In this document: piece by piece, positions 919 to 50,765 of the stretch
Numbering within the stretch: position 1 is the stretch's first letter
How the letters are laid out: every line of letters begins with the position of its first letter
Source of the DNA: Naegleria gruberi
Taxonomy: Eukaryota
Assembly (NCBI GenBank): GCA_000004985.1
Contig: GG738892.1
DNA length: 64,000 bases
Reading direction: 5' to 3' (one strand)
Notes under the pieces: model-generated
Seen by the model: only the letters and a program-made list of their open reading frames with translations
What the model was told of the DNA's origin: nothing
Database searches by the model: none
Translations under genes and position numbers: made by a program

Positions 919-1502
919 CTTGAACTCTACCTTAATTCGAAATACAGCAGCACCGTGTTGGTATATTAGGTAGATAATAATATGGATCAATCTCTTCCTG
1001 TTCCTTGTTTATATTGTAGGAATCTAGTAACTTCGAAATTACCACATGCTATATCGAAGAGATGTTACTTTTGGCAATTTTTGCAAATAATACACAGACT
1101 CATAACATAAATGATTATTTCTCACGTTCAGCTCTGTTAAATGTAGTTCACTAATATGTTTCGCTCCAATACTAGTTAGGGAGTTCCAACTACAGTCCAG
1201 ATATTCTAGCAGAGGAAATGCCTTACAAATTTGCTCACATTATCTTTGGTATAACCAAAGGTAATTGAGAGATGTTTCAATTTTATCAAACCTGTGGAAG
1301 AATGCTTCAGTTTTGTCAAAGCTGTAAGATATATTCTAAATGTTGGACAACAATGATCACTAATCCTTGCTACTATTTTATAATGAGTGTGCCCAGTCTT
1401 CAACTTCAGTCGATTTTTTAATTGGAGATGACGCAGATTATCAGCCCAAATCATCTCCCTCCAAAAGTAAGTAAGGAATCAATGAAAATCTTATGAAAAA
1501 AA

Positions 1503-2844: not shown

Positions 2845-3416
2845 TTCTTTTACTCAAGAGATAAGACGAGAAGGGAAATGGAATATCATTGATTTGGAAT
2901 ACTATTAAAGCATGAATATGGGCATGATACTAGTTACATCATTACGAGTTGTGTGAAACGAACTCTATCCTCCATGTATCAAAGATGTACCAGTAATATC
3001 TATTGAACAGAATGCAAAGTGTCTATTTGTTTGGATAATACACCAGCCGCAACCAACGAATGATGCAAGATAATCATAAAAAATATTCACAACTGTCTTT
3101 GACCATTGCTGTTTAAGGATCCTGATGTTAGATCTTGACAAAATCTGAATACTGCTTTTCTTTAACATTGTTACTCCCGTTATTCAACTTATTACATATC
3201 TCTCAATAGCGACATAAACTGAAATCTTGTGCTAGGGCTGAAACTTTTTCCTTCTAACAATTCAAAAGCCATCAAAAGGAGAGAGAACATAAAATTCATA
3301 CTGTCAAAAAAACAGAAAAAAACGAGTAAGAAAAACCGCTGTTCATCTACAGCAACAACAGCCTCAACAAGAATAACAAGAAGCCTCAACAACTTTGGAA
3401 AATAATTTTAATACTG

Positions 3417-6200
3417 ATGGGAGCAGCATTATCTTCTCCCTGCGCTATAAAACTTGATCGAGTGGATGAACCATCTCCTGTTTCATCATATCCGGGAGGA
3501 GGAAGTACTTCATCATTAAATCAAAAGACAAAAGAAAGAGAAAGATCTTCATCAAAAACTGAACAACGAGTTGTAAAAGACAATTCAGCTAATGAAGCCG
3601 CCTTATCTAAAAAACAAAATGATTTTGAAAAAAGTCCCTCTTCAGGTAAGAATGGCAACAGTTCTACTACTCCTCAAAAAAGACCTCCTAAAATTGTTGT
3701 CGCTCATTCTGAAACCCTAAGCACTGCAGAAGTTGATGGTGCTAGTAAGGTTTCAATGGAAACAACAAGTAACTCCCCTAATGAAGCCAAATCTTCAACC
3801 TCTCTTCCAAGCAGTGTATACAATGTTCAATTCCACCAATCACCAAGTAATAGGAGTTCAAAATCAGAACAAGTTGCTTTTAGTGAGGCAAACAATAGTA
3901 TTCAGCCACAACAACAACTGAATCCGATAGTAGTTCAACAAGGTAGTAATCCACTTCCAATACCAAGTCAAACACTTCCAGTGAGGTCCCCAAAGAATTA
4001 TGAGTTGAGGTCTGGCTCAACAGAAGACCCTCCAACCTTACAACCTCTAAGGAGATTTCAATCGCCTACTAATAGTTCCTATGAAAACAAACCAACCTTT
4101 AACTCCCCTTCTACCCCTGTAAACCTTCAATCACCAACAAGAACTCCAGCATCCACTTCAAGAAATAGGCCTCATTATCTCAGTAAAATATCCTCACCAC
4201 CAACAAGAGGAAACTCTCCCACCTCAATGCTTAGCTCTTTAAGACAATCTAGAGACCAAAAGAGTAACAGTGATAGTAGTGTATATGATGTTTCCTCTTC
4301 TTTCACTTTAAGTGAGAGCACTGAATTGGCAGTAACCCCAACCCCAAGTTCAAAGAAATCATTGTCCTCATCATCTGTTTCAGAAAGTCATCCCTATTCT
4401 TTGAAACAAAAATCATCCTCCTCCGCTTCTATATCTACAAATGTCAATAATAATGTCAAAAATATGAAATCACAAATTGAAGAATCTGTAATGAAATTTA
4501 ATGCCTCCATAGGCACAGACAGTAAGAGAATTTTACCAAAAAGAAGACACTCACTTCTTGCTTCTGGGAGAAACTCACCCAGTTTGCTTAATGAGCTGAA
4601 ACAAAATGAAAAATCAGATTCAACTTGCTCACCTTCAACAGTTTATAACCCAAGCATTCCGATAGGTCAGAGCAATATTGAAAAAATCCAACAGGAACGA
4701 AGATTTTCAGACTTTGTAACTCCACTCACCAAAAAACGAAGCGCATTTAATCAGGCAACTAAACCTGTAAACAATTCTAAGAATTCAAGAAATAGATTGA
4801 GAGCCTCAGTAGAAAATCCAGCAACTTTGACTCCTGTTAGGGCTCCAGCTAGAAGAAGAATGAGTATTTCAGTTTCTCCTCAGCATAAGGTTGAAATGAC
4901 TACAACTGCCCAAGTTGGTAGAGATCAACACGGAAGAAAGATAATCAACCAATACACAATCATCAAAAAGTTAGGTAAGGGATCTTATGGATCAGTAAAG
5001 CTCGGTAAAAATGAACAGACAGGACAATTGGCTGCCATTAAGGTTATTAACCGATCTCTTCTCAATAATATTAAGAAGAAATGGAGTGCTCCTGGACAAC
5101 AACAAAATAATCAAATCAGTAAGATTAAGTTGGAAATTGCCATTCTTAAGAATCTGGATCACCCTAATATTGTTCGTTTGCTCGAGGTGATTGATGATCC
5201 AATGAATGACAAGATTTGCCTTGTTTTCGAATTTATTGATGGTGGCGAATTGATGAAACTTAATGATGATGGTGTTCTTGTTGATGGAAAACCATTCACA
5301 GAAGATGAAGCAAGATACTATTTCAGACAAATGCTAAACAGTTTAGAATATTTACACTTCAACAGAGTTGTACATAGAGATATCAAACCTTCTAATATTC
5401 TTTTAACTAAGACTAGGGATGTAAAATTATCTGACTTTGGTGTCAGTAAATTATTGGCAGAGGACGAAGAGGATACACTTGATGACTCTCAAGGAACTCC
5501 TGCTTTTTTGCCTCCTGAAGCATGCTACAAAGGTAAAATACAAGGTAAACCAGCCGATATTTGGGCACTAGGGATTACATTATATTGTATGGTGGTGGGA
5601 CAAGTTCCTTTCCGTTCTGACGAACCTGGAGCATCCAAGCTTCTCTATCTGTACTATGTTATTCAACATGAAGATCCACAAATACCTGAAAATCTGAGTC
5701 CAGAATTGAAGGATATCATAACTAGGATGTTGGATAAAAACGCAAAATCAAGAATTACAATGGATGATCTTCAAGAGCACCCTTGGGTTACTAAGGATGA
5801 AGAGTCCTTCATAGAAGAGCCACAAAAGACATTGTCAGAATTATATCCAGATTTCTCTTCACCAAATATTCAATACTTGGAATCCAGAAGAAAATCTGCA
5901 ATTCCAACAAACAGAACCTATGTACACCACGCTCAACTCAGAAAGATGCACAGTACAAGAAAGGTTGTTGTTGATTCTGAAGATATCGACAATGCCATTA
6001 AAGAAAAAGAATACGACCCAAATACTCCTAAGAAAACCAGTTTCAAGAAGGAACATCACCATAACCACAATGCATCAATTGAAAAGATTTCCCTTGTAAG
6101 AAACAGAAGCTCGTGTAAAATTTTGGTTTCACAAGAACCATCTAAACAGGAAGTTAGGACTTCCATTCCAACAATTGAGATAAATTCCAAAACAGAATAA
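3417..6200 (+). CDS. Ser/Thr protein kinase, CaMKK-like (calcium/calmodulin-dependent protein kinase kinase family), with a long Ser-rich N-terminal region
   Basis: 927-aa ORF. The kinase domain carries GKGSYGSVKL...AIK (subdomains I-II), HRDIKPSNILL (VIb), DFGVS (VII) and GTPAFLPPE (VIII). The GTPAF(M/L)APE and DIKPSN signatures are typical of CaMKK, Elm1 and Sak1-type kinases. Confidence 0.75.
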   Translation: MGAALSSPCAIKLDRVDEPSPVSSYPGGGSTSSLNQKTKERERSSSKTEQRVVKDNSANEAALSKKQNDFEKSPSSGKNGNSSTTPQKRPPKIVVAHSETLSTAEVDGASKVSMETTSNSPNEAKSSTSLPSSVYNVQFHQSPSNRSSKSEQVAFSEANNSIQPQQQLNPIVVQQGSNPLPIPSQTLPVRSPKNYELRSGSTEDPPTLQPLRRFQSPTNSSYENKPTFNSPSTPVNLQSPTRTPASTSRNRPHYLSKISSPPTRGNSPTSMLSSLRQSRDQKSNSDSSVYDVSSSFTLSESTELAVTPTPSSKKSLSSSSVSESHPYSLKQKSSSSASISTNVNNNVKNMKSQIEESVMKFNASIGTDSKRILPKRRHSLLASGRNSPSLLNELKQNEKSDSTCSPSTVYNPSIPIGQSNIEKIQQERRFSDFVTPLTKKRSAFNQATKPVNNSKNSRNRLRASVENPATLTPVRAPARRRMSISVSPQHKVEMTTTAQVGRDQHGRKIINQYTIIKKLGKGSYGSVKLGKNEQTGQLAAIKVINRSLLNNIKKKWSAPGQQQNNQISKIKLEIAILKNLDHPNIVRLLEVIDDPMNDKICLVFEFIDGGELMKLNDDGVLVDGKPFTEDEARYYFRQMLNSLEYLHFNRVVHRDIKPSNILLTKTRDVKLSDFGVSKLLAEDEEDTLDDSQGTPAFLPPEACYKGKIQGKPADIWALGITLYCMVVGQVPFRSDEPGASKLLYLYYVIQHEDPQIPENLSPELKDIITRMLDKNAKSRITMDDLQEHPWVTKDEESFIEEPQKTLSELYPDFSSPNIQYLESRRKSAIPTNRTYVHHAQLRKMHSTRKVVVDSEDIDNAIKEKEYDPNTPKKTSFKKEHHHNHNASIEKISLVRNRSSCKILVSQEPSKQEVRTSIPTIEINSKTE

Positions 6201-8849: not shown

Positions 8850-10118
8850 TTACAAATCGATGACCTTTGACAATTTTTGAATTCTGTTCAAGAGATGATC
8901 ACCTTGTTTAAGAGTATGATTATACAAAGTATTCTTTTCGTCTGTTCGGCTTGATTCAATGACACCAGAAACCTTATCAATCTTGGCGTTCAATTTATCA
9001 GCTGAAATAAATCTGGAAAGTTCCATATCCAAGAAATCAGGACTCAATCCAAATTGTTCAGCCATAGCATCTAAAGTTACACTCTTGTAAGCTTGCAAGA
9101 ATTGTGAATAAGCACGAACTCTCATTTCTCTTGAATAGAATCGAACATGCTTTGACAAATAACGATCCTTGATTAATTGGTTATCCATCAATTCAACCAA
9201 TGAAACCAAGAACAAGTTATATTGACAGTTATAGAATGATCTAACAAATTGTTCAGCATTTGGCAACTTGTGAATAACTGATAATACATCAGAAGATTCA
9301 AGAATATTCTTCTTCATCTCTGGTCTACCAAGTGAGAAGGTAGTCACAACAATTGTATAGAAAATGAATTGTTCAAAAGTCATAATTTCACTGGAAGAGA
9401 AAGTAGAAATTGAATCCAAGAAAAGCTTAGCAGCCTTTGAGAAGTTTCTAATTGTCATCAAGTGAATTCCTTCATAGACCTTTAATCTATTTCTTCTTTC
9501 CCAGTCACCACCTTCAACAATCAAACTATTTGCTCTTTCGAGATTTCTTTTCACAATATCCTTATCATCAAAAGCAAATCCAATACGAAGCAAAGCGAAT
9601 AAAATGTCTAATTTTTGTCCTAAAGCAACAGTTTTTGTTTCTGTTTCTCTGAAAGCAGAGAGAGCATTTTCCTTGTCTCCGATAGAGTAATAATATTGAG
9701 CTTTAGCAAGGAGAGCTTCTCTAACTTCATTTTCACCAAGATTTTGATTAGCATCAGAGATTTTATCTTCCAATTCCTTGAGTTTGTTTTGGTTAGCCTC
9801 CTTCAAAGATTGGAGCAATGTTTGATCCAACTTGAAATATGTTGGTAATTGTTGAGTGAGAACATTTTCATAATATGGTCCCATTTCTATTAATGTATTG
9901 ATGGTAAATTGTACAATGATGAAGAAGGTAAATTATACAATAATCACAAATTATGATCAATAATACATGATCGGAGCATATTACATACCCTTTTGTTTAA
10001 CAAGATCCAAAATTTCTTGAGCAAGGGCAGTCTTATTAGTTTTAGGGAAATCATTGCTTACCAAGAACTTCTTCTCGGCAAGGACAAGCAAGTGGCATAC
10101 TGGTTCGACTTCTTCCAT
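8850..10118 (-). CDS. RPN7: 26S proteasome regulatory (lid) subunit RPN7 / PSMD6, two exons (9989..10118, 8850..9886)
   Basis: Strong identity to PSMD6/Rpn7 along the whole protein, including EGGDWERRNRLKVYEGIH, the PCI domain and a C-terminal KQGDHLLNRIQKLSKVI. Exon 1 (MEEVEPV...LDLVKQK) joins through a 102-nt GTATGT..AG intron to give ...KQKEMGPYYENV, matching the human ...MAPYYEAL junction. Confidence 0.9.
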
Positions 10119-32284: not shown

Positions 32285-32355
32285 TGCGTCGACCGGGAAT
32301 TGAACCCGGGTCACGGCGATGGCAACGCCGTATTCTACCACTAAACCATCGACGC
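32285..32355 (-). tRNA. tRNA-Gly (anticodon GCC)
   Basis: The reverse complement reads GCGTCGA-TG-GTTT-AGTGGTAGAAT-A-CGGCG-TTGCCAT-CGCCG-TGAC-CCGGG-TTCAATT-CCCGG-TCGACGC-A. It forms a canonical cloverleaf with a 7-bp acceptor stem, a GTGG D-loop, a TTCAATT T-loop and the anticodon GCC. Confidence 0.85.
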
Positions 32356-32479: not shown

Positions 32480-35400
32480 ATGGATGATCAGTGGCCCACC
32501 CACCAAATTGACAAGAATGATGATCAAACTATTGATGTGGTTGGTAACCTAAAACCGAAGGAAGCGATCAAGGAGGTGAACAAAAAAATTAAACAATTAG
32601 AGAATGAAATTAATTCCCACTTGTCCTCGTTTGATGTTAGTTTTGACTTTGGAGAAAATGGAGACTTCCAAAGACTGTTAGTTACCATTAGAAAGTTTGG
32701 TAAAACATTTGCTAACGAAACTTTTGTAGCTTGTACAGACAAAAGCTCTCCAAGTATGATCTTTAGGTATTTGGAGGTGGCAGAAATATCATCTGCTAAA
32801 AAATCAAATGAATTTGGCATTGAAAAGACACAATACTATTATGTAAGTAATTATACTAGTGGCATGTCAAATTCATTTCAAAAAGTTATTACAAGATATT
32901 TCAAAATATCTCAAAAAGAATATGAATATGGAAGAATCGCTATTCGGCAAAGCAAAGAAAATGTTATTTGGTAAAACTAAGAGTGAACAGCTTTTAGATG
33001 AGTTGGAAATTATTTGTAAAGACAGATTCTATGAAGTCAACAACAAAGTGCTAGAAGAAGGTGTCGATGAAATTTGTGATTTCATCCAAAACAAAAAGAA
33101 AGAAGAAGCAAGAAAAATATTTCTTTCTCTATTTATGATGGTTTCTAAAAATCCTGACATATATTCTAATGTCAATCTCTTTCAAGTGGCATGTACTCAT
33201 TTATTACTGACACTATATGTTGCTAATAATCCACCTCCTGTTGTCTTTAAATGGATAAGTGAAATTCTCGTTACTAGTGCAAAAGATTACTCCAAATTTG
33301 CCCATAATATCAGGAAAATAATGTTGCTGAGTGGATTGAAAAACTTTGAGTTTGAATATGTATTGGTATTGCATCAATTTAAAAATAATCATTTTGATCA
33401 ATGGAATATATTTTGGAAAAAAGCCAGTATTTCAGCTGAGCTGCACGATTGGGTTTGTGAATATTATTTTAGAGTGTTTCCAAATAATTGGTATCATTTG
33501 GAAATTACTTTCTCCTCAATTATTCAACCTCAAAACTCCAAATATTTACCAATTTATGTATCTAGTTTATTGCAGAGATCACCAGAATATTTCACCAATT
33601 TTTGGAAGAACTATCTAAATAATTTAGACATGACAAAAGAACCACTCTACATATTTTGTCTGCAATTTTTATGCTATAACATACAGACATTCTTAAATGA
33701 TCTATTACTCAAGCAAAAGCTCATTTCTAGTCTTGCCACAAAAGAAATCCTTGATTTCTCTGAAAATACTCTTCAGTCTATTCTCCAAACAATTCAACAA
33801 TATGGAGTGGATTACTATTTGGGTGCACTGGAATTCTCACTAAAGAATAATGCCAAATCTGATAATCTGACCCCCAAAAACATGAGATTAGCAATCAAAT
33901 ACTTTCCAAATCAAGTGTCTAATGAAACTTTCATGATATTTTTAACAAACCAGATGAAAAAGAGGGCCAGTGTTGATGTAATATTCGAAATGATCGATAG
34001 TTACATGAATGTGAACGGATTGGATTTACAAAGAGTATTGTCCTTTTACACGAGTTGGTTTGGTTTAACAAAAGATTTCAGACATTTACAAATTTTTGAT
34101 ATTCTTGAATCAAAATCTATTGAATCTTTCATTTCTGAATTGGATGAAAATTCAGCGGAAACAATTGTATTGGCTTTATCTAACCTTTTTAATGATACAT
34201 CAGCAAAGGAGGCAAGACTGAAGTCTGCCAAGCAATTGTTCTACTTAGGATCTGATAATCTAACCAGACATCATTATGTATTTTATAAGGCATTTATCAA
34301 TTCATTGTTAGACTCTACTGATATGTTGGAAAGACTTAGAATAGTTTCATTAATCGCTGATGACATGTCTACTTCAAAGCTATTTTCGACTTTTGCTCCA
34401 TACCTTTTAGAAAATGCAATTGTAAATAGGGAACAAACAGGAATCAAGTTTTTCCTTGATTCTGAAAAGTACCTCAACATATTTATTAACACCTGGAAAC
34501 ATAATCAAAATTCAAAGGAATGGAAAGAGTATCGTGACTTATTCGTAAGTGCGGTAAAGAATCCTCTTCAAGACTTGACAGATAGCATTTCAGACAACCA
34601 GATAACGATCAAGGATTTGGAATTGTTACAAAAAGAAAGATATCGTTTTAATTCACTGATCGAGAAATTAGATTTAGCTAAAGTGAATGGAATAGAAAGA
34701 AAGATAGAAACTTCCAAGTCTGTAGAAAAAGATATTCAAGAATTGACTAAAATTATTTCATGGTTAAAAAGGTTCCCACTGCTTATGGAGTTTACACAAC
34801 ATTTATCATTACTGGATGAAACATCTACACTCTCAGAATTGGAATCTAATGTTGAAAGCCTCAAGGCACAACTTGATTATATTGATAACAGAAGAGACTT
34901 GATAATTTTTCTCCACGATGAAGACAGTCTATTGTTCCACTCTCTATTCAAAAAATTTCTTCATGACTCTGGGGAAACTGGTGATATTATAGCAGTATCT
35001 GAAATATTTACAAGAGTGATTGAATTCTTGGAACACATTAATATGCAAAATATTCAAAGTTTGAAAGAGTATGAGATTTTAGATCTTTCTAAGCAGCTGA
35101 GAGCTAAAGGAAAAACTCTCTCTGGTGAGATTGAACTTCTATCCTCAGTTCTTAACAAGACTAGTTCAGGAGGTCAATTTAATATCAATTTGGAGGTTTT
35201 AAGAAAAGCACTAAACTTGGAAGAGCTTGGAACTGGATTAGAATATTTTGTTGATTGTATGCAAGACTACAATATGGAGCTTGTTAAAGAAGAGAGTTTC
35301 AATAACATAAAAAGACTCAAAGATAGATTGTACGGTCTGAGAGACATTCCTCTTTCGGAAGTTGAAGTAATTCTTGATGTTTCTAATGAAGCAATGCAAG

Positions 35401-38400
35401 GTTTGGACGGTTATCACACCAAATATTTTAAAGATTTATTAACTCCAGAGTCAAAAGGATTAATTCAATTTTTGAAGGATAATTTGTTAAGCTTTGAAGA
35501 TTCTATCAAAGTAGTAAGGACAAGAAGTAGAAACTCTAAATTCCACGAAGAAATAGTGAATTCTTTAATTATTGCCAAAGAACTGGTCTCTCCTTTACTC
35601 AATCAAAAGATCACCTTCCAAGATTTTAGAAATAAGATTCTTGCCTTATTCAACAAGGAAGAGGATCTTTTCAAGCTTAAGGAACTTCAAGTTGTTAACG
35701 AAAATCTTACAACCATCAAAATTTTATTCTCTAGTACAGCCACTATCCACCTTGATGATGTTTTTGATAGTGTCAGGGCAATAATAGAAAAGGGAAAGTT
35801 TATTTCCACACCAGATTCATTAATCGTTAGCTACGAAGATAAAGAAATATCAGGAGAAGAGCTAGTTGATTTGGTTAGGGTTGCTATTTTCAGATCTTCT
35901 GATTCAGAAAATGACCAAAATATCAAGATGAAACATGATTTACAAAACTTTATATTGCTTTATCAAATGGCAGAGCAAATTCAGTCAACTATCAAAGAGC
36001 TAATCAAAGAGGGTTATCCTAAATACCATGATCAAGAACGAATCGAAATTAATGAAAGAATGGAAAAATTAGAGCTTGAAAAGAAGAACAATGCTTTTAA
36101 TGCAAAACTTGAAAAATGGAAAAAATCTATTGAGGACCTTGTGGAATCACAACCATTAGTTTTAAATTTATCAAGAAGTCAACTAACAAAATTTGTTTCA
36201 CTCTTCAAGGATAGTTTAGAAAGTGAAGAAAGGGAATGTCAAAGTCTTATTCCATATATAATGCTAATTGTTAAAGAATTGTTCAGAGATAATCTGAAGC
36301 ATTATCCAATTACAGAAGAAGGATTGAAGGAAATTTTGAGTGGTTTCAAAAGTACAACAAGTGCAAAAGAGATTTTGAAGCTTTCTGGTGAATTTGTACA
36401 GAAAATTATTGAAAGTATTGCTGGCGATTTAGATCAAGAAAGAAATAACTACGAAACCAAAACACTGTATGATGTGAATGGCTCACAAATACCAATTATT
36501 CTACTTAAAATATTCCAAGAAAATATCATTCAGTACTCTGGTGATAATAGTGTTTTGATAGTCAACAATTCCAATATCTTCTACTGTGATGAAAGTACAA
36601 GGAAAGAGGACATTCAATGGTTTTGTAAAAGAAGGAAAGCTTTCCCGGAGCTCACTTATGCTCTGGTTCATGTGAACAAGTTAGTGCTCAGTGTGAAGGA
36701 AGAGTTGATCAAGTTTGAGTTTGAAGCTCATGAAAAGAACCAAAAGGTAGGATTGACTACTTTGATTTTCACATCAGACGCATCTAAAGAAGCATTCTCA
36801 TTTATTGAAACAAAGAATGACATTGAAGGTATGGCCCAAAAGAAGCCAATTATTAGCAAGTACCTTTCAGAAAGTTGTAAGATAGAGAAATTTGAGACTG
36901 TTAAGGGAGAATCAGCTTCTGGTAAGACTCGTTATATTCAATCAGAAAAACGAGATAATGAGGTCTATGTGAGAATTGCAGTACATGAAGAATTTTCATA
37001 TGACTATTTTTATGAACAATTGTGTTCTTATGATTTTGAAAATTCACCAAAGGTTTTAATTCATTTTGATGTTTCCTATGTTTTTGAATTGAGAAACTTT
37101 GAATTATTCTTACTTGAATGGATCTTTGGTAGATGCTTGCAAAGTAAGAAGGGTCAACTGGTTGATACTTGGGGCAACACTAAAGAATCAATTCGTATTT
37201 TTGTTGAAATACCAAGTAGCTTTGAAAAAGTCAAGTTGGATTTAATATCTTTAATTGAGACTACTATTGGACCAAAATCATTACATTCAGATCTTGCAAG
37301 TTTTGATTTTGGAGAGGAAAAAACAAGATATGTAGCCTCAATGTTTACTTTGTTCAATTCAAAAAAGATTAATGATATTAATCGTTTCTTGAATGTTGAC
37401 AAGAATTTAGTCTCGGAAGAAAAGTCGAGACAAGTGCTTACTCAATTTTTCAGCGTAAGCAAGGTTACAAAAAGCCATTCATTGAGAAAAATATTCATTG
37501 AATTGATGTATGAAAGGTTAAGAGGTCTTGAAAATTATCATATTAAGTTTTTGAAATTGAAAGAGTCCAACGAGTTTGGTCAAGATATTTACGGAAATGC
37601 TCAAGAATTAATTTTCACAATCAATGGAACTCTCTTCCCTGTATTTAAAGAAGAATGTGAGGTGATGACAGATAATACTATTGAACGATGCTGGAGTGAC
37701 CTTCCCGTAGTATTTGCAGTACCAAATCTTACAGATGATATACCCAATTATAATATCGTCAGATGTTCTAAATGTAGCACTACTAGAGAGTATATTGGCA
37801 TGCAACCACTTGATGTAAAAACTAGCACACTAGCAGAAATACGTTCAATATTGACATCCTCTTTCGAAGTTAATTCCATAATTGAAATTTGTGAAAAGAC
37901 CAACTATTTGCTAACTAAGGACTTTGCTATCAAATTATTTTTGTTAGATGAAAGAAGAAAGGTTGGCAGATCTGTTATTATTGAAAGTGAAACTGGTGTG
38001 GGAAAAAGTGAATTGCTTCGATTTTATTCAAATATTTTAAATTCCAACAACAAATTATTGCCTGATATAAGATTTGAGCTAAGGAAGTGGCTGTGTGAAA
38101 CTGTTGATCAATTCACTTCCAAGAATAATATTCAAACAGAGGTTAGAACTAAAAATATGGACAAATGTAGATCCAGAGAATATATTGTAAAGCTGTTGAA
38201 AGAAACAGAAGAACAAGTTGGTCAACAGTTGTTGCAAGAAATTACAATTTCTCTAGTAAGCGCAGTTAAGAAAATATTTGATGAGTTCAAATTAATTGAA
38301 AAAACAGACCTTATTAACTCCACTTTTGAGGCTCTTGAACAACAGAATTATGATTTATGGACAGTGGATATGATTGCTGACTTTTTAGCTCAAGCTGAGT

Positions 38401-41400
38401 CAGCAAGACCTGAAAACTCTATTTATTTCAAGATTTTGATGCATAGTGGTATAAGTTCACAAGAAATAAGACAAACTATAAGAGATATCGAAAGAAACAC
38501 TTTGAGATTAATCAATTCAGGATATCAAGACTTAAAGGTTGTTGTTTTCATTGATGAGTTGAATACAAGCAGTTGTATGGGCATTATGAAAGAGCTATTT
38601 GTGGACCATACATTAGACGGTCAATTGTTACCAAAATCTATCTTTTTTGTTGGTGCCATAAATCCAAAATTGCAAAATGAAGAATATGTAGTTAACGAAA
38701 TTGCACCATCCATGAAACTTATCAGATTTAACTATGCAGATCTCTCTAAATATCAAGAGCAAGAATTTTTGGCTCTACTGATCGAATTAGAGCAAAAGAA
38801 GCGAGATGAACATGAAGGATTTGTACATGATTTACAAACATTCATTTTATCTGCCCAACGTTTTGTTGCAGAGTCTAAACAATTGGATAAGAGAATAAGA
38901 GTTTCAATCAGAGATTTAACAAGGGCATGTAAACTATATTGGTTTTTGAAGGATAATGAAGTTCTTTACTACTCTGCTAATCTCTCCATAGAACAATGTC
39001 ACATTATTTGCTTATACATGGCCTTAGCACTGTCCTATTATTTCAGATTACCTTCTAGTGAGAGAACCAAATTTGAGGAAATGATTGATAGAGAAGCACA
39101 TACTCAGGTGCAATATGGAATCTTTGCATTTTCTCAAGTTGTCTCAGAGCAATTAGGATATTTCTATCAAAAAGCAAAACAACGCGGATTTATTCCTCCA
39201 GGTATTGCAAGTACAAAAGCATTATTAGAAAATTTCTTCACTATGGTCATTGGAATTCAAGTTGGAATAGGAATCAGCTGTGTTGGTCCTCCAGGAAATT
39301 CAAAGACTTTATCTTACACTATTGCAACACAAAAGAAGAAGAGTCTTTTTGTTGGAATGAAAACTGTTCATACCCAACATTATCAATGCAATGAATTGTC
39401 TACTGCTAATGAAATTGAATTAGTAGTAAAGAGCCAAGTTGAAACTAGACGAAAGTATGAAAGAGCAGGAATGGTTAACGAAATTTGTAGTGTATTAATT
39501 GATGAAGCAAGTCTTCCAATAGAAAAGAAAAATTCGCTCAAAGTTCTTCATTACTATCTTGACAAACCAACTATTAGCACAGTTCTCATTTCAAACAATT
39601 TATTGGATGCAGCTAAATCTAATAGATGTATTCAAATTGTTCAACCAGAGACTAGCTTTGAGGATTTGAGAGCACTTTGTCAAGGTTGTTTAATGTTAAA
39701 TGAAGATGACATTAAGCCAAATTCAAGAATAGATAGAATTATTACAGCATTATGTAAATCATTTAAAGAGGTCAATTATGTGCTTACTAGCACAATTGTT
39801 AAGCAACATAATGGCACTGGTGGAATTTTCCATTTGAGAGATTTCGTCTACTTCTTAAGAATGCTATCTAAGAATAAGGGTAATCACAAGGAGGTTTTCT
39901 CTGGTAACAATATTTACTATTGTTTACAACGTAATTTTAATGGTGTTCCAGAAAATGATTTCCAAAAAATTCAAGAGCTTTTCTTGACAAATATTAACGA
40001 AATGTTAGGAACAAAGATTCATATCGAAAAGGAAAAGATCAAGCAATATATTGATGTAGTATATGATAGTATTCACGATAGTTTATCAAAATACGATGAT
40101 CCAAATCAATCTCACTACAGACATACTATGATTATCGATCCGAGCCAAGCTCAGGCCTCTATTAAGCTTTTAACATCCAACAATATAATTGACCAATCCA
40201 AGACAAAGGTTGTTTACATTAGCGATTTTAAGGGTGATACAAATGATTTGTCCCTTTCTCAAGAAATTAGTGAAGTCAAAAATTGTATGGAACTTGGAGC
40301 ACCGGTAGTATTGGTAAATTCATCTGCCATTTCTACAAATTTCTTTGACGTTTTTAACAAACACTTTACCAAGGTAAATGATAGATACTTTGCCAATGTG
40401 TCTATTAAAGGAAAAACTCACCCATGTGAAATTAATTCCAGCTTCCACTGTATAGTCCACGTTCCTATTGCACAATACAGAGAGTTACCTTTGCCATTCT
40501 TGAATAGATTTGAGAAATACATTATTGGTGCAGAGAGAGTTTTGAAGAGTGATCTTTTGGTTGAAAAAGAGGAGAGCAAGAAGGCAATTTTCGATCACAT
40601 CAGAAGAGGAGTTAATGACTTTGTTCGTCAATTTGATGCTAGTACATTCTATGGTCTTGTTGAAGATGAAACAGTGGATTTATTAATCAAATCAATCTAT
40701 CAACAATCCAAAGACTCTATTCAAATTAAGAAACCACTAACAATTAAGAATAATAACATTATAGAACTATTGAAAGAAAATGGTATGGAAGATAATATCG
40801 ATTTAGAGGAAGAGGACGAAGAAATTTCCATCAACAAACTGAGGAGCTACATTAGAAAGATTAACTTTCAACTGTTGCAAATTGCCAAACCTGAAGATAT
40901 TTTCCTCAGAAGAAAATTCATTCCAAAATCCTACCTAGTGGAGTACCTCACAAAACAAGAGCACTTTTGTACAATTTCATTTTTGAAGAATGCCATAGAC
41001 CAACATTTCAAACAATCCACAACAAATAATTCAAAGTACATTCTTTATACCAGACACTCAAGTGGTATTCACACTCTCAATGATACTGACCGTTTAAAGG
41101 AGATTACCTCCGTTGCATGTACTTCTGAACCTTTGAAGTCATGTGTGAACAATCCAAGTGAAATTATTACCCTTGCTTCACTTTCTTCATTCTCTTCTCA
41201 ATTAGAATTCCACAGATTCTTGGGAGAGTTTGCAGCTGATCATCAAAAGCTTGTTTTACTATTAACCATTGATATGTCAATGATTTCTAAAAACACTGTG
41301 AATTTTGTAAAATTCAAGATTGAGAATATTCTTTCTTCTCCAATGAAGAAGGTTAAGAATATGACACCTTTCGTTTCTCTTATTCTCTACTTCCCTCCAG

Positions 41401-44400
41401 AGTCTTCTCATTTCAATGCTGCTTACGATAGTATTTTCTTAGGGTGGGACTATTATTACATTGACAGTTTAAGAGGAGACCTTGGTGATGGTCAAATTAG
41501 TCAATATAGAGATAGCAGATACTGGTTTAGTGTTGCTGTTGGATTACTGAAGGGATTCCGTGCATCTGATAAACAGGCCTTCCAAAATTCTTTCATTCCA
41601 TTATATAACAAGCTTTTGGAAGATTATATTCGTTCAGATAATACAGCCGTTGCATCTGGATCACTTAGTCCATTTTTCATGAGAAGAAATATTAACAAAC
41701 TGGTAGACAAGAAAAAGTTTATTCTGACAAATATTAACAAGCTTGAATTATTGAGAGACATTGTGTTGAACATGTTTGCTGATAGGTGGAATAACCAGTT
41801 CCTTTCTCAACTCGTTCAAAAAATATGTACCGATATTACCAGTGGTAAGATAGTCAATGGTATCATTCAAACAATTTCCTATGAACTTTCGTCTGTCCTA
41901 GAAGAAATGATGTATCCTATCACAAGAAAATTAATTTATCTTACACCATCCGTACAAAAGATTCTCAATGTAGAAGATCAATCTACACTTTGTTTACTAC
42001 GTAAATTGATAGAGGTTTTCATAACAACAAACAAGAAAAAGAGCAAGAGCTCAGATATTTTACATGTATCAACCTATCAAAGTACAAATGAACACTTGCC
42101 TCTTTCTACTCTCCTTATTGAAAAGATGATTCTAAATGAGAAATCTGATAATCTAGACGAAGTGGTAGAAATGATTGAGAATGACAAGGAAAATTTTGAA
42201 AAATTCCGTCTCGATATGATTTCTTTCTATTTTGAAAAAGACATTACAAAAGAAGACCAAGCAATAAGATTAGTTGATATTCTTATTTCCCCTATTTGGA
42301 ATAGTGCAGAGGGAAAGAAGAGTATGAGACTACTCTCACATCTTTCACAAACCAAAGTCAAGAATAGTATCAAAATCTTACTTAACGTTCTTTCCCAATT
42401 CAAGTCTATTAATTTCTTGACAGACGAATTCAAAAAACATTTGCAAGGAAAGCAACTCCATGAGTGTTTGGAAGTCATCTTTACTTACATTCTTGATTAT
42501 GTATACAAAAATATAGGAACAGCTCTTGAAGAGAAAGACTTGGATAGTATTAATAGTTGGATGAGCGAACTTTCATCTATCAACTTTATGTATATTAAGG
42601 ATATTGCACCTAAATACTTTAAGAGTTCAAGATTCTCCATTCTATTCTTGGTCTACTATGTGTTGAAAGGATGGGTTTTAAGTGAAGAGCAAATTGAATA
42701 TTTGTGGAAAGGAATTACAGAACTATACAAAAATCCAACATACCTACCAGATAACTTTATAGATATTTATAATTGCTTCAAAGATACTGTTACAACCTTC
42801 TTGGACCCTAATCAACAATCTATCTGGATTAATAATGTTACGAGATTTGCCTTTGTGCATATTATTGACATTTGGTCGGCTCCATCATTGACAAACTTTT
42901 TCACAATTATTTCACAATACGAAAAGGATGAAAATTCAATTTTCAAACAACTTAATATTGGCTTGATAACAAGTATTACAAAAACCATAATGGCTCGTTA
43001 TCTGCAAAACAAATTCAACCAAAATATGACGAATGTAGTTGAGCAAGAATTGAACAATTACTCTGATGAAAACTTTGTCCCAGAAGAATTATCTTCAAAG
43101 AAACAACCATTCTCTGTTCTGCTTCTTCAATCATCATATCTTTCTCATCACTCTCAATCAAAATGGGAAACATTCCTTCCACTCTTTACAAGACATCAAG
43201 AGGATGGAGGCAATAGTAAGCTTTCCAAACTTATCACTCAAGCCAACAATATTTTGCTGATAACAAAGCTCTCGAGTCATCTCCTCAAAGATGATGATCC
43301 ACAAAAAACTATTGAAAATATGGATGCAGAAACATGTGAATTGATTACTAATGTTATGAAACAAGAAAACATGGCTCTTTATTTCCTTTCAAGATATACT
43401 TCTGATGTTGAGTTGGAGATGATTCTTACTACAAATAGAGGAGAATTGGGAAGAATAGGACTGGCAAATTTCCATATACCATCAATTAAGAAGAATTTTA
43501 AATCTCATCATTTCTCATTCATGCATGATAATAATCAAGTGTACACAGATTTGAAAAGACATATTGAATCTAACAATATTCAACAGATACATAATTTTAT
43601 CAATACCAATGCTGCCCAGCATAAGTATTTCATTAGAATGTGTTTGATTGTAATCTCGTATAATTTCTACTTTTTGGAATGTAAATCTTGTGATGCTGTA
43701 TTGGCTATTTTACAAGACAGAAATGTATTGAATACTCTTAGTATTGATGACTCTGAGTTGAAGGCATTCGTATTCTTTGCTACTAAACCAGTATCTCTTC
43801 CAGTTGAGAAACAAGATGACTGGTTCGCATCATATTACTTCTCTCAGGAATTCATCAACTCTAACAGGGATAAGATGCTGACTCACCTCCTAGCAAATAT
43901 TACAGCAACTAATGTGGGCGTTCCAAAAGAGAAGAATCACTTGTATAACAGAATGTTTAATCCACAAGTATTGGCCAATTCATTCGGTCCTGGAAGTACA
44001 TATCAGGATAGGAACTGGGATTGTGGATATACTAGCTCTGGATACAATATTAATAACATTGAAAGCCACAATATTATGAATAGAAATCAGACATACCACT
44101 CAGCTTTGAACTCGCTCACTTGGGCTTCCTTTGTAATGTGCGTAATATTCGATCCAGCAAAGAATGAAAATGCTGCCAAAGGTGGACATATGTGTAATTG
44201 TATTGATGATGTCAAATTCAGGCCCAATTTAAGCAATTTGGAACAACTTCAAACCTATATTAAGATTAGGGCTGATACTTTCTGTTCTATTTTTGCTCAT
44301 TCACCTAATATTATTGGAAATGTGGACCCAATTATTTTCTTTACCTCATCTCTCGAGGAATTCACCAAGCAAGCACCAAACAGTAATGATTGTTTTGGAT

Positions 44401-46469
44401 TCTTTGCAAATAATAATACTCCAACCATTAGAGCATATGAAAACTTTTGGATGAACTCATGTTTCATTCCAACACTCAATCGTTATGCTAACATTGTTGG
44501 TAAAATGAATGCTGGTCAGAAACTTCTTCAAGATATTGGTCAATTCAAGGAAAGATCGTTGGCTATTAGAAAATGTGTTGATTTATTCCCTTCAAGAGAA
44601 AATATTCTTGCTTTCTTCTCCCAAAGATATACTGATATTGAAGATAATGCTGAGCTCATGACAGTAAGGCAAATAGTCAAACATAAGGACTGGTTATTGT
44701 TTAGTTATTATTTTATTGACTTTTTGAGTTTTTATGTTAAATTACACAGAGGTTTGAATGGCAAGATTGAAAGAGACTCAATTCATATGACAGTCAAGGA
44801 TGCATTAACACTCATTACCAAAGATAAGAGTAAACAAGAGGAAGAAGCCATCTACGAAAGTTGGGAATGCTTTAAGAAATCTTGGAATATTGTATCAGAA
44901 AAACAAGAGAGAAACATTGTTTGTCAACATGCTAACCAAGCTGAAATACCAATTATTGATGAAAACTCAATTCTCTCTCATCTGCTCTATGTTGAAGGTG
45001 GTAATAATGAGATTGGAACATTACTTTTAACAATTTATAATGCTCAATCAGATATTCAACAAGGACATTCTTTCCCAGATACCATTGATGCAGCCTATGT
45101 TATGGAACTTGATGATGTCTTTTACAAACTATTATTCAGCAAATTTGAGGATGATAACTTCTTTGAAAATATTCAATACTATGTAACAATCAATAACGGA
45201 GATATTAACTTTGATTGGAAGTCATTGGAGAGTTATTTTGTTGAATCACTTTCTAAAGGAAGGCCAAGACTTTTGGTTAAAAAGGATCAAGTTATTAGTC
45301 CACAAGCCATCTGCAAGTTCAAGGAGGATATCCCAATTGAGGAAGATTTACCTGATGAGATAATTCAAGAAGATAGCCTTTCTCTGGATACTTATGCATC
45401 TGAACTGAATACCTTGATTGAAAAGATGAATAGTATGGATATTTCATGGAAAACATTCGACAATACCAAGAAGAAATCATTTATGAATTCACTCAACTTC
45501 AGAGATACTAAAAAGATTTTACAAATTGCCAAAGATACATGTCAAGCTGCCACAAATTTGATTGGAAAAGTTCCCTTCAAATCATTTAGTATTGTCAACT
45601 CAGAAAGGGAAATTTTAGGATTCTCTGAATTTGTATTGGACATTATTTACAATAGAGATGAAGTTAAATCTCTATACGATAAATTCTCCTCCACGTTCAG
45701 AATTCCAATGTCAACCTCAACAAAGGAGAAATTTGAGAGAATTACTCTCTATACCATGAAAATGGTAGAAACATCCAATCCAGAATTGGATAATTTCCTG
45801 TCTGATTTGAGAACTATTGCTACTGTTATTTACAACAATGAAAAGGATATTGTTAATGCATACGCTTCAATGACAACTGCTAGTCTTAGAACCGTTTTTG
45901 AGTCTCAAATTCAAGTCAAAAATCACGATAATTTAGCTCAAATCCTTCCAAACTATTTCCTTGTTAAAAATTTGGTTCCTTACATTGAAAATATTAGAAG
46001 ATTAATTGGTAAAATTGAGCTCAAGAAATCTTCCATGAAAACGGAAAATTACCAAGAGCTTGTCCCTGATAATCTGAAAACAAGACCTGAATCTCCTATT
46101 GATCCATTGGACAGTTTGATTTCAAAAGTAGAAGAACCTGAAGAAGAAGAAGAAATTCCACAACCTCCTCCAATGTTTAATGTGATGCCACTATCTAACC
46201 TACCAATCATGCGTCCAAACATGCCTTCTAACAATTACACAATAGATCCAAATCAAATGAACAAGATTAAGAACCTTATGGAACAAGCCCAGAACGAGAA
46301 GCAAATTTCTCTACTTCTGCAACCACAATTATTGGATAATAATCTTCTATTGAGATTGGTAGAATTATTGGAAGAGGCAGAAATGTTGACAGAGGAAGGT
46401 AAAGAACTGCAACAAGCAATTTCAACCAACCAAACTATTATTTTACAAAACTTTAACAAGTTGAGATAA
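32480..46469 (+). CDS. giant protein of about 4,650 aa with two distant P-loop-like motifs; candidate RNF213/mysterin-like or dynein-like AAA+ ATPase with no detectable RING; two exons (32480..32842, 32886..46469)
   Basis: The 13.6-kb ORF is uninterrupted. A 43-nt GTAAGT..AG intron joins the upstream exon (MDDQWPTHQ...EKTQYYY) in frame to LLQDISKYL.... The first P-loop-like block, VGRSVIIESETGVGKSELLRFYSNIL, has a Walker B-like VVFIDELNTSS about 190 aa downstream. A second, degenerate Walker A, ISCVGPPGNSKTLSYTIA, has a downstream VLIDEASLP. The remainder is mostly alpha-helical, with no transmembrane or signal segments. Confidence 0.75.
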
Positions 46470-47973: not shown

Positions 47974-48242
47974 TTTTTTGTGTAGAGTTGGGAATTCCGA
48001 AACGTGATGGTCAATTTGAAGGTAACCAAGTGCTTGTTTCGACTATTCTTACAAGAAAACAAAGTTTTTTTGAAAGCAAATTCTAGCTACTCATCCTCTG
48101 TTTCAATTCACTGATATATTTTGCTCCTTCACCACCGACATATTATTGTAATTAATGTTTACACTACTTTATTAATTGACATAGCAAAGCTTGGCCATGA
48201 CCACATTGTTTTCTTCAATATTAAGATTTTGAGAATATGGAT

Positions 48243-48361
48243 GGCTACGGCCATATCACGATGAACGCACCTCATCCCGTTCGATTTGAGAAGTTAAGCA
48301 TCGTCGAGCCACATCAGTACTGAGGTTGGAGACAACTTGGGAACCTGTGGTGCTGTAGTCT
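48243..48361 (+). rRNA. 5S ribosomal RNA gene, copy 1
   Basis: GGCTACGGCCATATCACGATGAACGCACCTCATCCCGTTCGATTTGAGAAGTTAAGCATCGTCGAGCC...AGTACTGAGGTTGGAGACAACTTGGGAACCTGTGGTGCTGTAGTC. The 5' GGCUACGGC pairs with the 3' GCUGUAGUC to form helix I. The loop C box ATCCCGTTCGAT is conserved. A T5 Pol III terminator follows. Confidence 0.85.
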
Positions 48362-49083
48362 TTTTAATCTTAGATAAAGCAACAGGAGTTTAACTGAGCT
48401 TGAGAGGTTATAAATAACATTATGAACTATTGTAAATATTGTGTGAATGATTTAGGTTTTATTTGCAATGATTTGCCTTGGTTTACAAAATTTTGAGTTA
48501 AATGGAGATTACCACTTTTTGAATTGTTTGTTTCTCATTTAGTGATTGAGATTTGGAAGTTTTACTTGTTTCATCAAAATATTAATAGAAAAATTCAAAC
48601 TTCTTGTGATGAGTGGAAAATCCACTAAAAATCAGAATCACAAAATTAGTTATAAATAGGATGATGAAAGTTCCACAACAAAACAAAGTTACTAAATAAC
48701 AAACACTAAGAGCAAAATGCCAGCTAGAAATACCTCATCAAATTCTTCATCTTCCTAAGATAGAATTCCAACAAAAACAGAATGGACAAGATCAAAACCA
48801 ATTGATTTATCTAAGAGATTACCATTATTTGATATTGATACTTCTAATATTATAAGTGGAACTAGACATCGTAATAATATTGATTATCATCATGCAAATT
48901 TAAATGGTAAACAAATTTCTGTGAAAAGATCTTCTAAAAATTCAATTGAAAAGAGAGCTAAACAACAATCGAACACCACTAATAAGAAGATTACCAAATC
49001 GAAAAAGATGTAAATTACAACTTGTAAATAATTCAGTAAATTGTAAATAAAATAATTTGTTTTGAAATAGATGAAGTTTCAAT

Positions 49084-49320: not shown

Positions 49321-49769
49321 TGAAAGACAAAATCTTAGTTACTTGAAATCTTTAACATATTCCTTCATTTTTTCAATTTATTTTTTATTCATTGTATTAA
49401 GGCAATAAATGGCTACGGTATATCCTTTCATAGAGTTAAACATTGATTTTGAGTAATGAATAGCTGTACCCAAACCATTTTACAAGTATTAAATTTTTCC
49501 AATAATCACCTTTTAATTCAAAACCATTAAGAGTCAAATTGCATTCAATTCACGAACAACAAGTTAAAATTCATTATTGCATGTACAGCTGCAGCCCATA
49601 CTTACAAAACATGAACCAAGTTTGTGTCCAGAAACAAAAATCGGTTCATTGAAAGAATTTCTTTGCAGAAGAACTACTTTCTAAAAATATATACATCTCA
49701 AAACAATATAAAAAGCAAGGAACTGTTTTGAATTCAAGAAAAACAATAAGAAACAGGACAACAAACATA

Positions 49770-50228
49770 ATGCAATTATTTGTCAAGACACTCACTGGAA
49801 TAACTATCACTTTGGAGGTTGAATCTAATGATTCAATTGAAAACGTGAAAAGAAAAGTGCAAGATAAGGAAGGAATTTCACCAGATCAACAAAGACTCAT
49901 CTTTGCTGGAAAACAATTGGAAGATGGCAGAACTATTAATGATTACAACATTCAAAAAGATTCAACTCTTCATTTGGTGTTGAGATTAAGAGGAGGAATG
50001 CAACTTTTTGTAAAAACTTTAACTGGAAAGACAATCACTATTGAAATGGAATCGAATGATACTGTTGAGAATATGAAACAAAAGATATTTGATAAGGAAG
50101 GTATTCCTTCAGATCAACAACGATTGATTTATGCCGGTAAGCAATTGGAAGATGGAAGAACTATTGGTGATTACAATCTTCAAAAGGATTCAACTGTGCA
50201 TTTAGTATTGAGATTGAGAGGTGGTTAA
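49770..50228 (+). CDS. tandem di-ubiquitin (two head-to-tail ubiquitin units, each ending RLRGG); both units are unusually divergent from canonical ubiquitin
   Basis: Unit 1 reads [76 protein letters not shown]. Unit 2 reads [76 protein letters not shown]. Each differs from canonical ubiquitin at about 11-13 of 76 positions. The ORF track starts 14 codons upstream at 49728, but the ubiquitin Met at 49770 is the likely start. Confidence 0.85.
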
Positions 50229-50427
50229 GTTAGCAAAATATCATAGATTATCTCAATTATTGTCAAAAAATTATTTATTGAATAGTGAACATGAGTAAAA
50301 TTTATTCAATATAATAATCAACATCCAAAAACAAGTCATTTGTAACTTAGATTACATACACCCAATTTCAAAGCAGTTCAGAGGAAGGGTTGAACTGATT
50401 CATGTTTCACAATTTAAGATAATGAAT

Positions 50428-50546
50428 GGCTACGGCCATATCACGATGAATGCACCTCATCCCGTCCGATTTGAGAAGTTAAGCATCGTCGAGCCACATC
50501 AGTACTGAGGTTGGAGACAACTTGGGAACCTGTGGTGCTGTAGTCT
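50428..50546 (+). rRNA. 5S ribosomal RNA gene, copy 2
   Basis: Near-identical to copy 1, with about 3 substitutions (GAATGCACC, GTCCGATT). Same orientation, followed by a T5 run. Confidence 0.85.
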
Positions 50547-50765
50547 TTTTATCTTTTTGAAACATTTAACAAAGAAAAAGCATCATGATGTTAAATAAGA
50601 ATATGCAAATATCTCAAACCAACTTTTTGAGTTTATGAAAGGATGTTAAATCACTTCAATACAACAATTAAAAATTAAATTAGTGATTAGCATAACGTTA
50701 AAAACAACGAGACAATTCATTTTGCAATAAAGCAATTTTTATTTCAAGTTTTAATTTCTTAAAAT

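Follow-up and report, generated by a model that had tools for sequence, protein, structure and literature searches.

The variant di-ubiquitin gene of the window (the whole 64,000-nucleotide stretch of Naegleria gruberi DNA that was analysed) is probably one copy, of the type that we call subtype A, of a multigene family that is dispersed and restricted to the genus Naegleria. Every gene of this family codes for two different ubiquitin variants, joined head to tail in a fixed pairing, which would be cleaved from each other and conjugated. Judged from its sequence, the window copy appears to be a real, functional gene and an ordinary paralog beside canonical ubiquitin, not a strange ubiquitin. 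As a rule, ubiquitin is regarded as invariant, and few functional variants of it are known, such as human UbKEKS.

Structure and sequence of the two-unit gene

The gene lies on a 342-kb N. gruberi scaffold, and an exact sequence look-up retrieved its protein under the accessions XP_002673186.1, EFC40442.1 and D2VRS6, already annotated as 'polyubiquitin'. A sequence-only reading of the same DNA had recognized a tandem di-ubiquitin at 49770-50228, and these coordinates proved exact (Table 1). The open reading frame has 152 codons from the ATG at 49770, the TAA stop codon occupies positions 50226-50228, and the translation is matched twice by the Pfam ubiquitin family PF00240 (E = 3.4e-59). There is no spacer between the units, the GG of unit 1 being joined directly to the Met of unit 2, and the units repeat with a period of exactly 228 nt. 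A C-terminal cap residue is absent in this copy, with the stop codon directly after the last GG. A tblastn search of the 64-kb window with human ubiquitin found these two units and no other ubiquitin-like ORFs.

Table 1. Features of the variant di-ubiquitin locus, in positions of the window.
Feature	Positions	Strand	Basis or remark
5' flank common to sister copies, probably promoter and 5' UTR (putative)	49602..49769	+	blastn, five-copy alignment
Motif TTTGTGTC..GAAAC	49621-49635	+	invariant in five copies of both subtypes (alignment)
TATA-like element TCTAAAAATATATA / TCTAAAAATA	49680-49693	+	77-90 nt before ATG; conserved in five-copy alignment
Variant di-ubiquitin CDS	49770..50228	+	complete, single exon, stop codon included
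Unit 1, subtype-A type	49770..49997	+	ends in RLRGG, then directly Met of unit 2
Ile codon ATA, residue 11 of unit 1	49800..49802	+	AGA (Arg) in the closest copies (codon table)
Unit 2	49998..50225	+	K11 kept; ends in RLRGG, then stop codon
3' flank common to sister subtype-A copies, probably 3' UTR (putative)	50229..50348	+	blastn

The window has a G+C content of about 33% and long uninterrupted ORFs. It also holds two 5S rRNA genes, one tRNA gene and an RPN7 ORF (8850-9881, minus strand), which matches RPN7 of N. gruberi at 100% identity, with the next matches in N. lovaniensis (88%) and Willaertia (80%). A literature search found no usable paper on a linkage between 5S and ubiquitin genes.

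Compared with human ubiquitin, unit 1 has 11 differences (I3L, K11I, P19S, S20N, T22S, A28R, I30V, P37S, L56I, S57N and E64D; 85.5% identity) and unit 2 has 16 (I3L, L15I, V17M, P19S, S20N, I23V, V26M, A28Q, Q31F, P38S, F45Y, L56I, S57G, I61L, E64D and L67V; 78.9% identity). The sequence-only reading had counted 11-13 differences per unit, which is right for unit 1 and too low for unit 2. It had also put the difference between the units at about 13 positions, whereas 15 of the 76 residues differ, at a DNA identity of 76%. Its residue assignments agree with the translation: RLRGG, K27, K29, K33, K48, K63 and the L8/I44/V70 patch are kept in both units, an Ile codon has removed the K11 site of unit 1, and Phe31 and Tyr45 (Q31F and F45Y) are present in unit 2.

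K6, H68, R42, R54 and R72 are likewise kept in both units. All seven acceptor lysines (K6, K11, K27, K29, K33, K48 and K63) are present in unit 2, and all of them except K11 in unit 1. LRLRGG, Arg72 and the L8/I44/H68/V70 patch are found in both units. In an alignment of 21 family members and relatives, most of these residues are invariant, and in unit 1 V70, L71 and R74 show a conservation of at least 90%. With R72, RLRGG and all functional patches in place, the units appear to be ubiquitin proper and not a distant ubiquitin-like modifier. In the ubiquitin structure, nine of the substitutions (I3L, L15I, V17M, I23V, V26M, I30V, L56I, I61L and L67V) would be conservative swaps in the core, and those at positions 11, 19, 20, 22, 28, 31, 37, 38, 45, 57 and 64 would lie on the surface.

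An AlphaFold2 model built on the family alignment consists of two beta-grasp units with a mean pLDDT of 88.5. The pTM of this model is 0.52, which suggests that there is no fixed packing between the units, as in linear di-ubiquitin. In a structural search with Foldseek, the best PDB matches of the model were linear di-ubiquitins.

The similarity between copies extends beyond the coding sequence. In blastn comparisons that include the flanks, the window is 97% identical to the environmental contig L003 over 776 nt (49575 to 50348) and 90.6% identical to the environmental contig L002 over 694 nt (49602 to 50289). In subtype A, the shared sequence reaches from about 170-195 nt before the ATG to 60-120 nt past the stop codon. 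The conserved upstream region presumably acts as a promoter. An inspection of this region by eye for a heat-shock element found irregularly spaced GAA/TTC triplets and no clean element, and we make no claim for one. None of the accessions of the family occurs in the examined portions of two proteome supplements for N. gruberi (PMC8134430 and PMC9035749), in which the sole 'polyubiquitin' is XP_002669208.1, a 191-kDa protein.

Canonical and variant ubiquitin genes in Naegleria

N. gruberi has a canonical tri-ubiquitin (XP_002674746.1 / EFC42002.1 / D2VMK5) of 229 aa, which consists of three identical units and a C-terminal Asn. Each unit corresponds to human ubiquitin with the changes P19S, S20N and A28S (3 of 76 residues). 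The longest contig on record for this protein measures 554 kb, and the gene is therefore not on the 342-kb scaffold of the di-ubiquitin. According to an exact-sequence look-up, the protein is identical to N. fowleri XP_044556741.1.

For N. fowleri, a 'polyubiquitin with 3 ub domains' (PDB 5VIX) has been reported to be 96% identical to human tri-ubiquitin (PMC7990177). The sequence of 5VIX_A was reconstructed from its bit scores in phmmer searches, by scoring 45,647 candidate sets of substitutions locally. The chain scores 279.2 bits against the variant di-ubiquitin query and 306.1 bits against a human di-ubiquitin query, and the combination of P19S, S20N and A28S was the sole candidate set, of the 45,647, that matched both values. 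Used as a query itself, the reconstructed candidate gave 342.9 bits (E 1.5e-102, residues 1-160), which is its exact local self-score, and an exact look-up of the reconstructed construct returned '5VIX_A, Polyubiquitin [Naegleria fowleri]'. The 85% identity between the variant di-ubiquitin and 5VIX reported by Foldseek equals the expected 129 of 152 residues. Human ubiquitin and that of Naegleria are also aligned in a figure of a 2024 paper in EMBO Rep.

S19 and N20 are the normal ubiquitin state of the genus. Measured against the canonical Naegleria unit, unit 1 has 9 changes (I3L, K11I, T22S, S28R, I30V, P37S, L56I, S57N and E64D) and unit 2 has 14 (I3L, L15I, V17M, I23V, V26M, S28Q, Q31F, P38S, F45Y, L56I, S57G, I61L, E64D and L67V).

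With the whole di-ubiquitin as the query, the matches are three-unit canonical polyubiquitins of 82-85% identity, and the ranking by summed bits hides two-unit relatives. Matches are seemingly limited to 1.75 times the query length, and a 92-residue query, made of the last 16 residues of unit 1 and all of unit 2, shuts out the three-unit proteins. Ten N. gruberi proteins of 152-153 aa, the window copy included, are 95-100% identical to this shorter query. The sequence-only reading had suggested an alignment with related taxa, and the shorter query also matches proteins of the same two-unit architecture in N. fowleri (FDP41_010776, FDP41_002230) as well as in N. lovaniensis (C9374_001527). In total, and with the single-unit gene P0362 included, the family numbers at least 16 gene models in N. 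gruberi, on scaffolds of at least 10 different lengths; this count is taken from annotated proteins and could be inflated by allelic or duplicated scaffolds. According to the accession lists, the protein P0245 alone corresponds to at least 4 gene models, on six contigs, and P0248 to two. A literature search, also by accession, found no paper describing the Naegleria variant di-ubiquitin family.

The N. gruberi copies fall into two subtypes. Subtype A comprises the window copy, P0243, P0245, P0246, P0250 and P0253, which have Arg11 (Ile11 in the window copy), Ser37 and Phe45 in unit 1 and carry no cap. Subtype B comprises P0242, P0244, P0247, P0248, P0249 and P0361, which have Lys11, Pro37, Glu39 and Tyr45 in unit 1 and mostly a one-residue cap. 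P0251 combines Lys11 and a cap with an otherwise A-like unit 1 (Ser37 and Phe45). The caps found in subtype-B, N. fowleri and N. lovaniensis copies are Y, C, G, TLCI, VDL and A. Unit 2 is almost identical in all copies of the family. The order of the units is fixed, with I61 or V61 and L67 in unit 1, and L61 and V67 or I67 in unit 2; the window copy has these marks as well. L3 is present in all units of the family, and D64 in all but one (unit 1 of N. lovaniensis C9374_001527, which has His64). N. gruberi also has a 77-aa single-unit gene of the unit-2 type (P0362). One subtype-B copy adjoins a ClpB/Hsp104-type chaperone gene.

A neighbour-joining tree of the units, which is crude with its 76 sites, places the variant units apart from the canonical Naegleria and human ubiquitins. 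The unit 2 sequences of N. gruberi, N. fowleri and N. lovaniensis cluster together in this tree, so that the two unit types are older than the split of the species. A three-unit variant gene of N. lovaniensis (P0101) adjoins a transposase at a contig end, in an unrelated locus. We considered it as an ortholog of the window locus and rejected it, in view of its three units, the absence of synteny and the absence of a 5S gene nearby.

Codon 11 of unit 1 sets the window copy apart. It is AGA (Arg) in the unit 1 of L002, L003 and both N. fowleri genes, Arg11 is shared by the other five N. gruberi proteins of subtype A and by both N. fowleri proteins, and Lys11 is kept in subtype B. The codon is the sole non-synonymous difference between the window copy and L002. 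Ile11 is therefore private to this copy and arose by a single-base G-to-T change (AGA to ATA) on an Arg11 background. A residue other than lysine at position 11, namely Arg, is a shared trait of subtype A and N. fowleri, and the G-to-T change hit a residue that was already not lysine. Without Lys11, the unit 1 of subtype A should be unable to accept K11-linked chains, whereas unit 2 should be able to do so. As the R11I change is private and stands on an otherwise invariant background, the window copy could be a slightly impaired member of the family.

Selection was assessed in a nucleotide comparison of the window copy with four N. gruberi-type environmental contigs (L002, L003, L010 and L011). 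Among these five copies, dS is 0.25-0.80, dN is 0.000-0.035 and dN/dS is 0.00-0.05; relative to L002, the window copy shows 21 synonymous and 1 non-synonymous change. Between species, dN/dS is 0.03-0.08 and dS is saturated. Since the copies differ mostly at synonymous sites, the variant proteins are strongly conserved, and the strong purifying selection indicated by the dN/dS values implies that the variant di-ubiquitin is not currently fast-evolving. Compared with canonical ubiquitin, whose protein sequence is unchanged between N. gruberi and N. fowleri, the variants evolve at a much higher rate, yet they are clearly constrained. The two units are not homogenized by gene conversion.

Possible roles of the variant units

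In the scheme that we favour, the genes would be transcribed from the conserved, TATA-containing upstream region. Deubiquitinases would then cut the precursor at the canonical RLRGG|MQ junction and release two free variants, both of which the ubiquitin E1 would activate, so that they could be conjugated alongside canonical ubiquitin. We infer E1 charging and conjugation because every determinant known to be required is intact, namely R42, R54, R72, L71, L73, G75-G76 and the two patches L8/I44/H68/V70 and I36.

The sequence-only reading had left open whether the di-ubiquitin is the bona fide, fast-evolving ubiquitin of the organism or a ubiquitin-like paralog, with a canonical gene elsewhere, and it had allowed for a lineage-wide divergence. 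There is indeed some sharing, in that 15 or more further 'polyubiquitin' gene models of N. gruberi have the same substitutions and S19 and N20 are genus-wide. The canonical tri-ubiquitin on another scaffold does not share the variant changes, and, being so close to human ubiquitin and identical in N. fowleri, it refutes the idea of a fast-evolving bona fide ubiquitin. N. gruberi cells are also stained by K48-, K63- and pan-ubiquitin antibodies (PMC11772885). That the variant di-ubiquitin is the ordinary ubiquitin of a divergent lineage is thus extremely improbable. The search for a canonical gene elsewhere having succeeded with XP_002674746.1, the paralog part of the second suggestion stands; the 'ubiquitin-like' part does not, as R72, RLRGG and the patches mark the units as apparent ubiquitin proper. 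A polyubiquitin duplicate that is decaying or drifting neutrally, as a pseudogene in the making, would account for units that have diverged far beyond canonical ubiquitin and for the private R11I change. It would also fit the sister copy P0253, which has the damaging changes L71W and R74I, and a weak ubiquitin-like relic that may lie just upstream, at 48789-49008. This explanation is nevertheless very unlikely, because the ORF is intact, the changes relative to L002 are nearly all synonymous, dN/dS is low among the five copies, the promoter-proximal sequence is conserved, and the architecture has been kept in three species at saturated dS.

The protein might also act as an uncleaved two-domain unit, either as a modifier that is conjugated whole, like ISG15 or FAT10, or as an encoded mimic of the linear (M1-type) di-ubiquitin signal. 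The fixed, ordered pair of unlike units is conserved across the genus, the subtype-A copies are uncapped, so that the GG just before the stop codon gives the primary product an end that could already be conjugated, and linear di-ubiquitins are the best structural matches. We regard this possibility as quite unlikely, since the RLRGG|MQLF junction is the RLRGG|MQ site that deubiquitinases cut in canonical polyubiquitin, and ISG15 (28-32% identical) and FAT10 have no internal GG. The single-unit gene P0362 and the three-unit gene P0101 within the family, the caps in subtype-B, N. fowleri and N. lovaniensis copies, which are typical of precursors, and the pTM value, which indicates no fixed interface between the units, point the same way. 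The variants could instead be interchangeable with canonical ubiquitin, in which case the family would raise ubiquitin dosage, for example under stress. The many copies, the retained interaction patches and the six or seven retained lysines fit such an extra supply. So do the nature of most changes, presumably conservative core swaps or changes on a mutation-tolerant face of the helix, and the chaperone gene next to one subtype-B copy. This explanation is rather unlikely: the variant-specific residues are constant at dS values up to 0.8 and the units stay unlike in every copy, which would be unexpected if any working ubiquitin sequence sufficed, and the canonical gene demonstrates that the lineage is able to hold ubiquitin invariant.

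A further step beyond the favoured family of cleaved and conjugated variant pairs would be a second ubiquitin 'alphabet', used in parallel to the canonical one. It would consist of two variants supplied in a fixed 1:1 ratio, with substrates or receptors of their own, one of the two often being without the K11 acceptor. We consider this proposal rather doubtful. If true, it would mean that the conserved variant-specific residues reflect a distinct signalling role, and not an extra supply of ubiquitin.

As the result of a genome scan, the finding is modest, in that the gene was already annotated and its paralog nature is now settled. Naegleria may still offer a natural system to learn which ubiquitin surfaces can change and whether variants carry signals of their own. 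The finding has a practical side as well. Proteomics and antibody work in Naegleria that assumes a single ubiquitin would miss or misassign variant peptides, for example LIYAGK(GG)QLEDGR versus LIFAGK(GG)QLEDGR.

Comparison with known systems

The variant genes resemble canonical polyubiquitin genes (yeast UBI4, human UBB and UBC, and N. gruberi XP_002674746.1) in their spacer-less units, with RLRGG followed by Met, in the lack of introns and in the expectation that deubiquitinases cut the precursor to monomers. However, the units of canonical polyubiquitin are identical, whereas the Naegleria variant units differ at 15 of 76 residues. Canonical polyubiquitin has an extra residue after the last GG (Asn in N. 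gruberi), and the window copy is uncapped. Finally, the canonical units are arranged in one long array, in contrast to the at least 16 dispersed two-unit copies in Naegleria.

Among ubiquitin-like modifiers, ISG15 and FAT10 share with the variant di-ubiquitin the two tandem beta-grasp domains, the total size of about 150 residues and the C-terminal LRGG. They differ from it in their low identity (28-32%), in the absence of an internal GG cleavage site and in the use of their own E1 enzymes, whereas the Naegleria protein has an RLRGG|M junction. We rejected a two-domain modifier of the ISG15/FAT10 type on the grounds that the terminal RLRGG of unit 1 leads directly into a Met and that identity to ISG15 is 28-32%. 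Of the ubiquitin-like modifiers, NEDD8/RUB1 comes closest, and plants encode it as a fusion to ubiquitin. Ala72 excludes NEDD8 from the ubiquitin E1. NEDD8 is about 58% identical to ubiquitin, while the Naegleria units have Arg72 and are 79-86% identical, and because of these properties, found in both units, a NEDD8 identity was rejected as well.

Substituted ubiquitin repeats are also found in plants. The UBQ8, UBQ9 and UBQ12 class of Arabidopsis, said to have been described by Callis et al. in 1995, reportedly consists of polyubiquitin-like genes with substituted, non-identical repeats. Plant UBQ-like genes have longer arrays, with scattered changes, and their function is uncertain. The Naegleria genes differ from them in being strict two-unit heterodimers, in which each unit type is conserved.

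The human UBBP4 gene is likewise a diverged ubiquitin-repeat gene that exists beside canonical ubiquitin and keeps the C-terminal GG. Its product UbKEKS modifies specific targets by conjugation, and the consequences are different (PMC7066184, Dubois et al. 2020). The number of substitutions is 4 in UbKEKS, whose locus carries a pseudogene annotation, whereas the Naegleria variants have 9-14 and come as a fixed pair from a multi-copy family that is conserved across the genus under strong purifying selection. By analogy, UbKEKS appears to be the best functional counterpart of the Naegleria variants, for which conjugation is predicted. The closest known kind of gene is thus a variant-ubiquitin gene derived from polyubiquitin, of which human UBBP4 and the plant UBQ-like genes are examples.

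5S rRNA genes around the di-ubiquitin gene

The di-ubiquitin gene (XP_002673186.1), a subtype-A member of the Naegleria variant family, is flanked on both sides by complete 5S rRNA genes, with a third, truncated 5S piece between them (see table). The two complete genes score 105 and 104 bits and differ from each other by 2 nt. The similarity of the two loci is not confined to the genes, but reaches about 29 nt upstream of each (48214-48366 versus 50399-50551, 92%). A 5S gene is also found next to the subtype-A copy on L002, an N. gruberi-type contig from another source, where it lies 170 nt past the stop codon on the opposite strand. In contrast, there is none near the subtype-B copies, or near the di-ubiquitin genes of N. 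fowleri or N. lovaniensis. This distribution suggests a linkage of 5S and di-ubiquitin genes that is confined to subtype A.

Ahead of the di-ubiquitin gene, and downstream of the first 5S gene, the segment 48789-49008 may be a decayed ubiquitin relic. At the nucleotide level, it has a weak match to the ubiquitin coding sequence (66% over 77 nt, E 0.002) and a further match of 22 nt, in an order roughly collinear with the tandem-unit layout. At the protein level, ubiquitin similarity of this region is not detectable.

Features of the window, with strand where assigned
Feature	Position	Strand	Remark
RPN7 ORF	8850-9884	-	proteasome lid subunit
tRNA-Gly (GCC) gene	32285-32355	-	found by both ARAGORN and Rfam
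Giant protein ORF	32859-46469	+	one unbroken ORF, 4536 codons
5S rRNA gene, complete	48243-48361	+	~1.4 kb upstream of di-ubiquitin gene
Possible ubiquitin relic	48789-49008		
Truncated 5S 5' end	49397-49418		
Di-ubiquitin gene	49770-50228	+	
5S rRNA gene, complete	50428-50546	+	~200 nt downstream of di-ubiquitin gene

A second ubiquitin-system gene in the window

RPN7 also belongs to the ubiquitin system, and 40 kb separate it from the di-ubiquitin gene; their co-occurrence is assumed to be a coincidence. The RPN7 ORF encodes 343 aa, compared to 388 aa in the annotated N. gruberi protein, which makes it likely that the gene includes an intron and, upstream, a short exon.

A large 'polyubiquitin' and the detection of repeat proteins

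N. gruberi XP_002669208.1 is named 'polyubiquitin', yet has a mass of 191 kDa (detected by 11 peptides, 11% coverage; PMC9035749, supplementary file 2). Probably the name is wrong, and only part of this large protein is ubiquitin-like.

The large protein search orders repeat proteins by summed bits, and the length of the matched proteins is apparently limited to 1.75 times query length: the longest were 266 aa with the 152-aa query (the whole di-ubiquitin) and 161 aa with the 92-aa query (unit 2 preceded by the last 16 residues of unit 1). As a result, closer relatives with fewer repeats are hidden in the case of repeat proteins.

Variant ubiquitin genes on other contigs

On L010, an environmental contig resembling N. 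gruberi, a variant di-ubiquitin gene of subtype B (297-758) and a ClpB/Hsp104-type AAA+ chaperone gene (777-3065) are arranged tail to tail with a gap of 19 nt. The adjacency may be a hint of a link to stress, or else may be due to chance. The N. lovaniensis contig PYSW02000029.1 carries a variant ubiquitin gene with three units (3473-4171), with a DDE_Tnp_4 transposase gene close by, at a contig end. All three units lack K11 (R, R and T, in order), the third starts with Arg instead of Met, which creates a GG|R junction, and the product has a YYLL tail.
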